Below, piece after piece: positions 3,572 to 5,058 of a stretch of DNA of 64,000 nt (positions within the stretch are counted from its first letter, which is position 1; the number at the start of each line of letters is the position of its first letter). Made by a program: the position numbers and the translations under genes. This DNA is from an uncultured delta proteobacterium (GTDB lineage: Bacteria > Myxococcota_A > Polyangia > Palsa-1104), in contig CAWAWS010000033.1 of assembly GCA_963785725.1 (NCBI GenBank), forward strand, positions 320,001 through 384,000, read 5' to 3'. A model generated the notes under the pieces. The model made no database searches. It was given only the letters and a program-made list of their open reading frames with translations, and was not told where the DNA came from.

Positions 3572-4807
3572 TCAGTCCAACTCACCGGCGAAGCCCTCGT
3601 CGACGTAGTGGAGAAAATACGAGGCCGAACGCTCGCCCGCGAACGGCTCGCGATAATGCGGCAGCTCGCAGCCGCGGAAGAGCACGGCGTCCCCGACGTC
3701 GAGCGCGATGGCCACCTGCTCGCCGCTCGCCGGCAGCTCGAGGTACAGCGGCCACGCGTTCGCCGACGACGAACCGGCGGCGAAGTCGAGGAGCAGCGAC
3801 GCCGTCAGGGCGCACTGCGGGCGATCGGTGTGCTTCTTCAGCGTCGCCCCGTGTCGATAGGAGGCGAAGTATCCGAACGACGGCTTGAACGCCGCCCCGG
3901 CCACGCGCGAGATGAACGGCGCCAGCTCGCGCTGGTAATAGCGCAGCAACGGCTCGTTATAGCGGGCCGAGCGCAGCGGCACCTGAATATCCGAGCCCGC
4001 CGTAAAACCCGAGTCGACGAGCCGCCGATTGTAGCGCGCCATGGCCGCGATCTGCAGCGGCGGGAGCACGCCCGGCAGCTTCGCGTAGCCGCTGTGCGCG
4101 AGCTGCGCGACCGCGGCCGCGAGCCGCGTCTGCGCCGCCTGCGCCGCGTCGCCGTCGACGACGATGCAGGCGCCGATCAGCTGCGCCAAGACCTGCGGAT
4201 CGAGCGCGCGCGGCGGCGGCGCCCCCGGGGTCAGACGCTGCACCAGGCTGAGCTCGCGCTCGTCGAGCCAATAGGGCAGCCGCGCGCCGGTCAAGGCGTC
4301 GGTGACGAGGAGCAGCGCGTCAGTCGGCTCCAGGATCTCCTCCAGCTCCGCCTGTTGCGCCACGAGCTGCGCCACGCCGGTGAGCTCGAGCCCCGGCGCC
4401 ACGACGAGCGCGCCCGTGTCCGCCACCGGCGCCGGCAGCGGCGCCGCGTCGGCGAGGCCGCAACGAAAAGTGACCGGCTGCCCGAGCTCGTGCGCGTAGA
4501 TCAGCACCCCAAGCTCCGCCAGGCGCGCGCACACGCTCTCGCTCAGCTCGACATCGTCGGTGCCTTCGACGATCGCGTGCAGGGCCGCCAGCACCTCGCT
4601 CGCGTCGTGCTCGACCAGCGTATTGAGGCGGCCGCGTCCCCGGATGGGCGCGAGGATGCGATAGCCCGCGATGTCATTGCCGTCGCGGAGCCGCAGCAAT
4701 TCCACGTGCGGGTTGAGCATCAGCTCGCCGGAATTGGAGTCGCTCAGGGCGGCACCCGAAACAGCGGAGCGCTCGACCTCAGCGTCCAGGGACTCGATCT
4801 CTTCCAT
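3572..4807 (-). CDS. 2OG-Fe(II) oxygenase-fold protein with a long N-terminal extension (possible peptide-recognition wHTH/RRE-like repeats)
   Basis: C-terminal YRHGATLKKHTDR (HxD), WPLYLE and GDAVLFRGCELPHYRE (distal His) fit the double-stranded beta-helix oxygenase pattern. AGGAG RBS upstream of the ATG. Confidence 0.75.
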   Translation of the reverse strand: MEEIESLDAEVERSAVSGAALSDSNSGELMLNPHVELLRLRDGNDIAGYRILAPIRGRGRLNTLVEHDASEVLAALHAIVEGTDDVELSESVCARLAELGVLIYAHELGQPVTFRCGLADAAPLPAPVADTGALVVAPGLELTGVAQLVAQQAELEEILEPTDALLLVTDALTGARLPYWLDERELSLVQRLTPGAPPPRALDPQVLAQLIGACIVVDGDAAQAAQTRLAAAVAQLAHSGYAKLPGVLPPLQIAAMARYNRRLVDSGFTAGSDIQVPLRSARYNEPLLRYYQRELAPFISRVAGAAFKPSFGYFASYRHGATLKKHTDRPQCALTASLLLDFAAGSSSANAWPLYLELPASGEQVAIALDVGDAVLFRGCELPHYREPFAGERSASYFLHYVDEGFAGELD

Positions 4808-4826
4808 GCCTATCTCTCCTGCCTCG

Positions 4827-4863
4827 GAGCGCCGGACGGCACCGCTCCGCCGTCCGCGCGCTC
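4827..4863. terminator. Intergenic stem-loop between the peptide gene and the oxygenase gene
   Basis: GAGCGCCGGACGGC (4827-4840) pairs with GCCGTCCGCGCGCTC (4849-4863), giving 14 bp with one bulge and an 8-nt loop. Confidence 0.6.
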
Positions 4864-4887
4864 AGCGCTTCACTTCGTGAGCTCGGT

Positions 4888-5058
4888 CTACTGCACCTTC
4901 CGCGGCTTCAGCGGGCACATCTCGGTGCTGCCGCTTTCCGGCACTATCTCGCTGCCGCCGTTGACGTTCGCCAGATCCCTAGCGTTGAGCCGCCGGATCG
5001 ACTCCTTCCGCAGCACTAGTTTCGATTGCTTCTGCTCGTTCTTCTCGTCCTTCTTCAT
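4888..5058 (-). CDS. Putative RiPP precursor peptide with a double-glycine leader (56 aa)
   Basis: MKKDEKNEQKQSKLVLRKESIRRLNARDLANVNGG|SEIVPESGSTEMCPLKPRKVQ. GGGAGA RBS before ATG 5058. The KLxLxKExIxxL...LxxVxGG leader pattern resembles class I lanthipeptide-type leaders. Confidence 0.7.
   Translation of the reverse strand: MKKDEKNEQKQSKLVLRKESIRRLNARDLANVNGGSEIVPESGSTEMCPLKPRKVQ

Follow-up and report, generated by a model that had tools for sequence, protein, structure and literature searches.

A kinase-WD40, double-glycine peptide, and 2OG-Fe(II)-type oxygenase unit in a soil myxobacterium: a putative variant of oxygenase-modified RiPP systems

Overview of the locus

In a soil myxobacterium, the gene for a double-Gly precursor peptide sits on the minus strand between a membrane kinase gene (upstream) and an oxygenase gene (downstream). 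The names of the closest homologs suggest that the host is one of the Polyangia. The three genes form a unit composed of a membrane Ser/Thr kinase with WD40, the precursor, and a 2OG-Fe(II)-type oxygenase (Table 1). Judged from sequence, the unit appears to be a new variant of oxygenase-modified RiPP, in which the modifying enzyme comes from an undescribed family and a kinase-WD40 gene adjoins. The best explanation of the whole, held at a probability of about 50%, is that the oxygenase modifies an exported peptide that would be the ligand of the adjacent kinase. Throughout, the window refers to the entire 64,000-nucleotide stretch of DNA that was analyzed.

The original prediction had described a 56-aa ORF with a good ribosome binding site, a leader, and a core, followed by a 14-bp hairpin and an HxD...H oxygenase. 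All three elements are present. The upstream kinase-WD40 gene, which lies outside the coordinates given in that prediction, was missed. The 204-aa ORF downstream of the oxygenase gene was considered as a further member and is probably outside the unit because it has no family match and no homolog in any fetched locus.

Table 1. Features of the unit and its surroundings, in window coordinates
Feature	Position	Strand	Description
Precursor peptide	4888..5058	-	35-aa LxLxKx5L double-Gly leader and 21-aa core; homologs P0163, P0164
Shine-Dalgarno-like GGGAGAG of precursor	5064..5070	-	Sequence
Stem-loop in precursor/oxygenase spacer	4827..4863	-	14 bp, 1-nt bulge, no U-tract
Oxygenase, 2OG-Fe(II)-type (predicted)	3572..4807	-	411 aa; two N-terminal modules and a C-terminal double-stranded beta-helix domain
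Ser/Thr kinase - hydrophobic helix - WD40 gene	5082..8445	-	Two frames, one break near 6258
Downstream ORF	2849..3463	-	204 aa; no family

The precursor peptide and the spacer hairpin

The kinase gene stops 23 nt before the precursor ATG, and GGGAGAG lies 5 nt ahead of that ATG. An alternative in-frame ATG at 5085 overlaps the kinase stop codon (ATGA) and would yield a 65-aa product, 9 aa longer. The precursor begins with MKKDEK, its leader ends with NVNGG, and the core that follows is SEIVPESGSTEMCPLKPRKVQ. The leader had been assigned to the class I lanthipeptide-like type, which agrees with its score of 27 bits (cut-off 22) against NF038153, a class I lanthipeptide leader model. Across 201 genomes of the phylum, among them few large Polyangia genomes, NF038153 matched only the host genome (G000) with an E of 0.001 or less.

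The spacer between the precursor and oxygenase genes is 80 nt long and holds the hairpin, which is composed of 6 + 8 Watson-Crick pairs. Its folding has a z of -1.97, and 7 of 200 shuffles fold equally well; taken alone, this signal is modest. Of 10 related spacers, 6 hold a comparable hairpin after the precursor (z of -1.7 or lower); the hairpin sequence is not a genome-wide repeat in the host genome. The hairpin would likely stabilize the precursor mRNA and favor the peptide over the enzyme message.

An undescribed oxygenase family

The oxygenase had no match in Pfam, NCBIfam, or the PDB sequences, and a search of the genome contigs with the single oxygenase sequence returned nothing. Five of 94 oxygenase homologs match PF13532 weakly. 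In the alignment of these 94 homologs, the iron triad is kept nearly throughout (H326 in 93/94, D328 in 94/94, and H384 in 94/94), and Y317, W352, and R386 are also invariant or nearly so. The invariant R386 lies two residues past the distal His, and an Arg at position 393, which we take to be the usual place of the basic 2-oxoglutarate-binding residue, is found in 40/94.

A model built from the 94-sequence alignment has a pLDDT of 92.4 and a pTM of 0.90. Its C-terminal half is predicted to be a double-stranded beta-helix, the fold of 2OG-Fe(II) oxygenases. Structure matches reach Z 19 with an rmsd of 2.6-2.8 over 171-183 aligned residues. One of them, 6n1f (Z 19.2), is a 2OG oxygenase with no stated substrate that is tied within 1 Z with prolyl 4-hydroxylases. 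All matches of the wide structure search are to the catalytic domain and speak only for that domain, for which the best profile match is phrog_2954 (E 9e-29, residues 238-404).

The N-terminal half holds two related strand-helix modules (about residues 36-105 and 165-218) that match each other at a profile probability of 93%. Module 1 is predicted to have three strands, two helices, and a short strand, and module 2 two strands and two helices. The RiPP recognition element is described in PMC12710340 as three strands followed by three helices. The predicted modules look like RiPP recognition elements in layout and are candidates only. Module 1 gave a probability of 1.6%, which is not significant, against a profile of 16 PqqD sequences, and its language-model look-alikes, all MftB, score only 0.79 and are a lead only.

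By sequence comparison, the oxygenase appears to belong to an unnamed, undescribed enzyme family. This family counts 2572 representatives at an E cut-off of 0.001, of which 268 remain at 1e-30. Members occur in 19 of the 401 class genomes and in 18 of the 138 genomes of one family; both tallies include the unpublished G686, which enters no other claim. No description of the oxygenase family or of the cassette was found in the literature searched, where supplementary tables on RiPP recognition elements or lanthipeptides could list it. Overlap with Xia et al. 2025, who reportedly describe macrocyclization by 2OG dioxygenases in RiPPs, is possible.

Pairing of peptide and oxygenase across relatives

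The pairing of peptide and oxygenase is real. The nearest relative of the precursor, P0164, is 72% identical to it, and P0003 is 85% identical to the oxygenase; their genes have consecutive locus tags (VHB97_20120 and VHB97_20115), and each record lies on a 3757-bp contig. In the same genus, G003 has the oxygenase together with an orthologous kinase-WD40 and two precursors of nearly identical leader. The G003 cluster also includes a prolyl oligopeptidase, an unnamed cupin-like protein, a C39 transporter, and LanB.

Oxygenase homologs come in two forms, with and without module 1. In the first set of loci, 9 of 20 with module 1 have a leader-type short ORF within 6 kb vs 1 of 29 without, with a background of 15 in 182 own-genome windows; this is a contrast and not a statistic because the positives were among the sources of the leader motifs and the loci are related to one another. 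The lone positive among the 29 is a hydrophobic ORF that looks like chance. In a further set, a leader-type ORF is found in 5 of 8 module-1 loci and in 0 of 2 without module 1. Two cupin-fused forms were tallied separately, and one of them has a leader-type ORF. The first set excludes catalytic-only forms, duplicate records, and loci in which a contig end truncates the start of the gene, except that the truncated L008, L055, L129, and L132 were kept. A loose motif scan was uninformative (10/20 vs 6/29; background 59/182) and was therefore rerun excluding ORFs that overlap long genes.

Eleven of the 20 module-1 loci have no motif match. Five of these have other RiPP markers (JmjC and arginase with a short peptide; oligopeptidase and cupin, twice; MNIO; PqqD), one has no upstream DNA, and five rows, which represent four genes (L035, L087, L122, and a G015 gene split over L132 and L055), show no RiPP marker.

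The relatives' loci bear out the proposal that peptide and oxygenase are a conserved pair and that the enzyme family is linked to RiPPs. A general lack of adjacent peptides, the finding that was to speak against this proposal, does not hold for full-length homologs. The peptide and the oxygenase are very probably substrate and enzyme.

The oxygenase as a putative tailoring enzyme

The oxygenase family adjoins LanM (L119, L121), MvdC/D-like ATP-grasp enzymes (L116, L120, L124, L129, and others), LanB, JmjC, and MNIO; near the host clade, the neighbor is most often a cupin. Because of this varied company, the enzyme would be a portable modifier, present in the window in its minimal form. At least five unrelated types of RiPP cluster contain a module-1 oxygenase. 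Its usual role in the family as a whole would be that of a tailoring enzyme, and only in this small clade does it stand alone. The earlier view of it as the primary modifier fits this clade only; elsewhere it accompanies the enzymes named above.

In a quick tree, the window oxygenase and P0003-P0005 group together within a clade in which the remaining members accompany a cupin; this company is seen directly for L115 and L148 and is taken from same-size contigs or adjacent tags for P0006, P0007, P0010, and P0014. Of the 401 class genomes, 52 have the cupin. It was not found in the host genome, which is 88% complete, though it stands beside the nearest sister oxygenases. The cupin-like protein (L054:15276-16529) is unnamed, about 410 aa long, and has an HQH...HSLFH motif, a weakly PqqD-like C-terminus, and 1051 homologs. 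The genes for such proteins often neighbor leader peptide genes, and some of the proteins are fused to the oxygenase (L057, L127); they are a candidate RiPP enzyme family in their own right.

Several other clusters were seen around members of the oxygenase family. In one family of genomes, a precursor with a microviridin-like PLFRRY leader is joined by an MvdC/D-like ATP-grasp enzyme and the oxygenase (L116:2512-2658, L120, L124, L129, L150, L151, L152, L155, L157). The cores of this unit are 10-11 aa long (e.g., AVPIGRWPIF) and have no Asp or Glu, so ordinary graspetide rings are impossible in them; the ligase may act on the core C-terminus. In L155 and L157, the core is also free of Cys, Ser, Thr, and Lys. 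Two LanM clusters (L119:4605-12915 and L121:5203-12359) have cores like MRPNEPVCSWSHNPYISC, the oxygenase, a DUF6445 protein, and a luciferase-like oxidoreductase. A RiPP-like locus in G003 (L058:7396-14933) encodes a 51-aa peptide ending in RPVRHIRREQ, two JmjC proteins, arginase, two oxygenases, an ABC transporter, and asparagine synthetase. In the host genome, L086 (G000:C3:474000-493000) has a short member of the oxygenase family with several PqqD-domain proteins and glycosyltransferase-like genes. A cluster kept across several phyla (L061, L066-L072, L118) encodes an oxygenase fused to a sulfotransferase, a second 2OG oxygenase, an Asp/Asn hydroxylase-like gene, a pyruvyl transferase, and glycosyltransferase-like genes; no peptide was seen in it.

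Core residues and the likely reaction

Only P and G are invariant across the five nearest cores, whose motif is E-x-x-P-[E/D]-[S/G]-G or E-P-P-D-G-G. Cys occurs with Ser/Thr in four of the five, and the core of P0164 has no Cys. Among 22 linked cores, Pro is the only universal residue (22/22; 17.8%), and Cys is found in 10, Glu in 11, and Asp in 5; the core boundaries in the ATP-grasp-linked precursors were guessed. Nine of these 22 cores come from one ATP-grasp lineage, and without them Pro stands at 14.7% (38/258, hand count). Control cores of the same leader class have Pro in 26 of 30 (8.2%).

Cys oxidation or cross-linking, which had been put forward as a possible reaction, is unlikely to be the conserved one and was rejected as such because the Cys-less P0164 is encoded beside P0003. 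Since Cys is not conserved and Pro is the only residue in all 22 cores, Pro hydroxylation is the best guess. That the reaction is a hydroxylation is likely; whether its target would be Pro is close to an even call, with Glu/Asp next likeliest. Prolyl 4-hydroxylases have a Tyr three residues ahead of the first His, and this position is Leu in 92 of the 94 oxygenase homologs.

The missing Tyr fits an alternative that we consider unlikely: the oxygenase may be a beta- or gamma-hydroxylase of the acidic residue after Pro (Glu41; Asp in G003), giving a linear hydroxy-acid peptide, like SmaO, CinX, and CanE. In each of the five nearest cores, the residue after the invariant Pro is acidic, and SmaO hydroxylates Asp in the DGDG motif of a double-Gly precursor (PMC12186529). 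However, Asp and Glu are absent from all nine ATP-grasp-linked cores and from L051, although targets may differ by subfamily. The top profile hits listed for SmaO (Ofd1_CTDD, DUF6445) are also unlike the phrog_2954 hit of the window oxygenase, and the DUF6445 protein is a separate gene in L119.

LanB, LanC, and transporter genes elsewhere in the genome

As originally predicted, no LanB/LanC/LanM, YcaO, radical SAM, or C39 was found among the 39 window ORFs scanned (approximate gene calls, not every ORF); some of these occur elsewhere in the genome. LanC is found at three places, LanB on contigs C47 and C26, and the only C39 peptidase-transporter on C26. This transporter is 58% identical to the one in the G003 cluster. 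The LanB of C47 is in three pieces and belongs to a class I lanthipeptide cluster (L090:10100-15270) with two precursors and LanC.

These genes allow for in-trans maturation of the peptide into a class I lanthipeptide by the genome's LanB/LanC, in which case the oxygenase would be a secondary tailoring enzyme. The class I leader, the Ser/Thr that precede one Cys in the core, the LanB within the G003 cluster, and the presence of Cys in 30/30 control cores are all consistent with such a peptide, but P0164 has no Cys and a leader that ends in Gly-Asn, the G003 cluster has no LanC, and the C47 LanB has its own two precursors besides its broken state in the assembly. This reading is therefore held to be rather improbable.

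The kinase-WD40 gene

The kinase-WD40 gene is the precursor's most constant neighbor in the genus. The window kinase is composed of a Pkinase domain, one hydrophobic helix, and WD40, and is not a histidine kinase. The pairing with a precursor also occurs in two other genomes of the genus, G002 and G003. In G002, a kinase-WD40, a precursor, and a cupin follow in that order with no oxygenase. In G003, the kinase coupled to the precursors (L054) is intact and shares 60%/53% identity with the window kinase, far more than other paralogs do. A second pair lies on the same contig of the host genome, and many kinase-precursor pairs are found in G015. Kinases of another subfamily have no paired peptide, and most oxygenase clusters outside the genus have no kinase-WD40 neighbor. 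A kinase or WD40 match lies within 1.5 kb of 18 of 30 NF038153 loci (five genomes) vs 35 of 400 random windows; in the tally of 18, two clusters appear twice and six matches are kinase-only.

G015 (L249-L260, L270-L298) has 31 NF038153-type matches, many beside kinases, with a recurring P-T-A-x-C core motif. Its own copy of the oxygenase has no peptide beside it and might act in trans.

The window kinase gene has one frameshift. Since this copy is broken, the receptor may be dead here, or the break is an assembly error; assembly indels are plausible because the C47 LanB of the same assembly is also in pieces. The contigs of run X1 cover the oxygenase and the kinase and bridge neither the precursor nor the frameshift. 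The frameshift, together with the cupin that stands beside sister-clade oxygenases and was not found in the host genome, could mean that a larger cupin/peptidase/transporter cluster is decaying here and has left a remnant with no active product. We judge this improbable: the precursor and oxygenase are intact with good ribosome sites, their direct adjacency is kept in the 85%-identical relative, and the LanB pieces point to assembly indels.

That the oxygenase acts on a non-peptide substrate, as its sulfotransferase-fused or glycan-cluster relatives might, with the peptide belonging to the kinase only, is highly improbable: many homologs do lie in sulfotransferase/glycosyltransferase clusters or beside purQ with no peptide, and G002 and many G015 kinase-peptide pairs have no oxygenase, but these peptide-less homologs lack module 1, whereas module-1 forms recur across unrelated RiPP clusters.

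A proposed pathway

On the preferred reading of a modified, exported kinase ligand, module 1 of the oxygenase would probably bind the precursor leader. The oxygenase would then hydroxylate the core, with the Pro of E-x-x-P-[E/D]-[S/G]-G as its likeliest target. The peptide would probably be cleaved and exported by the genome's only C39 transporter, which is encoded on another contig. Binding of the exported peptide to an outward WD40 domain, where it might act as the kinase ligand, is the most tentative of these steps. The unit may also be a remnant, because sister oxygenases travel with a cupin that the host lacks.

A broader idea is speculative and doubtful. The unit could be a myxobacterial plant-like peptide-hormone system, in which a leader-reading oxygenase prolyl-hydroxylates an exported peptide that is read by the adjacent receptor kinase; the oxygenase family would then be a portable, leader-guided proline hydroxylase common to graspetide, lanthipeptide, and enzyme-poor clusters.

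Comparison with known systems

By analogy, the locus would work like known 2OG-oxygenase RiPP tailoring, as in SmaA/SmaO/SmaX, where a double-Gly precursor is also modified by an Fe(II)/2OG hydroxylase (Kim et al. 2025, PMC12186529). The same source reports that SmaO-type enzymes recur as secondary modifiers in graspetide, lanthipeptide, and other clusters, and in those without a class-defining enzyme. SmaO differs in that it hydroxylates Asp and has an HD-domain partner. The window oxygenase is set apart from SmaO by its other profile hits, two N-terminal modules, usual cupin partner, and adjacent kinase-WD40. No HD or DUF6817 family, the SmaO/SmaX-type partner, was found among the window ORFs scanned.

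Class I lanthipeptide precursors share the LxLxKx5L...Gly-Gly leader, the Gly-Gly site, and the expected removal by C39, according to NF038153 and Walker et al. (10.1101/2020.03.13.990614), which also lists alpha-ketoglutarate oxygenases in lanthipeptide clusters. In contrast to these systems, the window locus has no LanB/LanC, an oxygenase is adjacent, and the nearest relative of the precursor, P0164, is without Cys.

The prolyl 4-hydroxylases PHD2 (2y33) and Pseudomonas PPHD (4iw3) match the oxygenase model at Z 19.0 and 18.9, with an rmsd of 2.8 over about 180 residues, and share HxD...H. Identity is 14-22%, however, and the window oxygenase has Leu in place of the prolyl 4-hydroxylase Tyr and extra N-terminal modules. 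The cyanophage 2OG-Fe(II) oxygenases of phrog_2954 (labeled 'ferrochelatase') share the catalytic domain, but they are stand-alone catalytic domains without N-terminal modules or peptide neighbors. Its gene content sets the locus apart from class I lanthipeptide clusters. It is not a SmaO/SmaX system either, and its enzyme is only a candidate prolyl 4-hydroxylase.

In ComC/ComD-type cassettes, a Gly-Gly peptide pheromone is paired with a sensor kinase, and in plants, hydroxyproline peptide hormones are paired with receptor kinases. The window shares with the ComC/ComD type an export-type peptide gene beside a membrane kinase, a Gly-Gly leader, and a C39 transporter in the genome. The possible likeness to plant hormones is Pro hydroxylation of the ligand. 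The window kinase is a Ser/Thr kinase with WD40, whereas ComD is a histidine kinase and the plant receptors are LRR kinases.

The unnamed oxygenase family comes with matched, short substrates, so its chemistry should be readable in one co-expression. If Pro is the target, the oxygenase would be a leader-guided prolyl hydroxylase for peptide engineering. Few ligands are known for the abundant myxobacterial Ser/Thr kinase-WD40 proteins. The three-gene form is a clean test bed for such kinases as peptide receptors and for modification as a gate of recognition.

Other features of the window

Two more Ser/Thr kinases, with TPR repeats, are encoded at 9685-12696 and 43253-46219, and a methyltransferase gene (8867-9544) lies between the first of these and the kinase-WD40 gene. 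An encapsulin gene and a DyP peroxidase cargo gene are found at 22208-24071. The region 51403-64000 is toxin-complex-like and encodes a 2552-aa protein with SpvB, TcdB-mid, and RHS domains and a cut ORF with a VRP1 domain.
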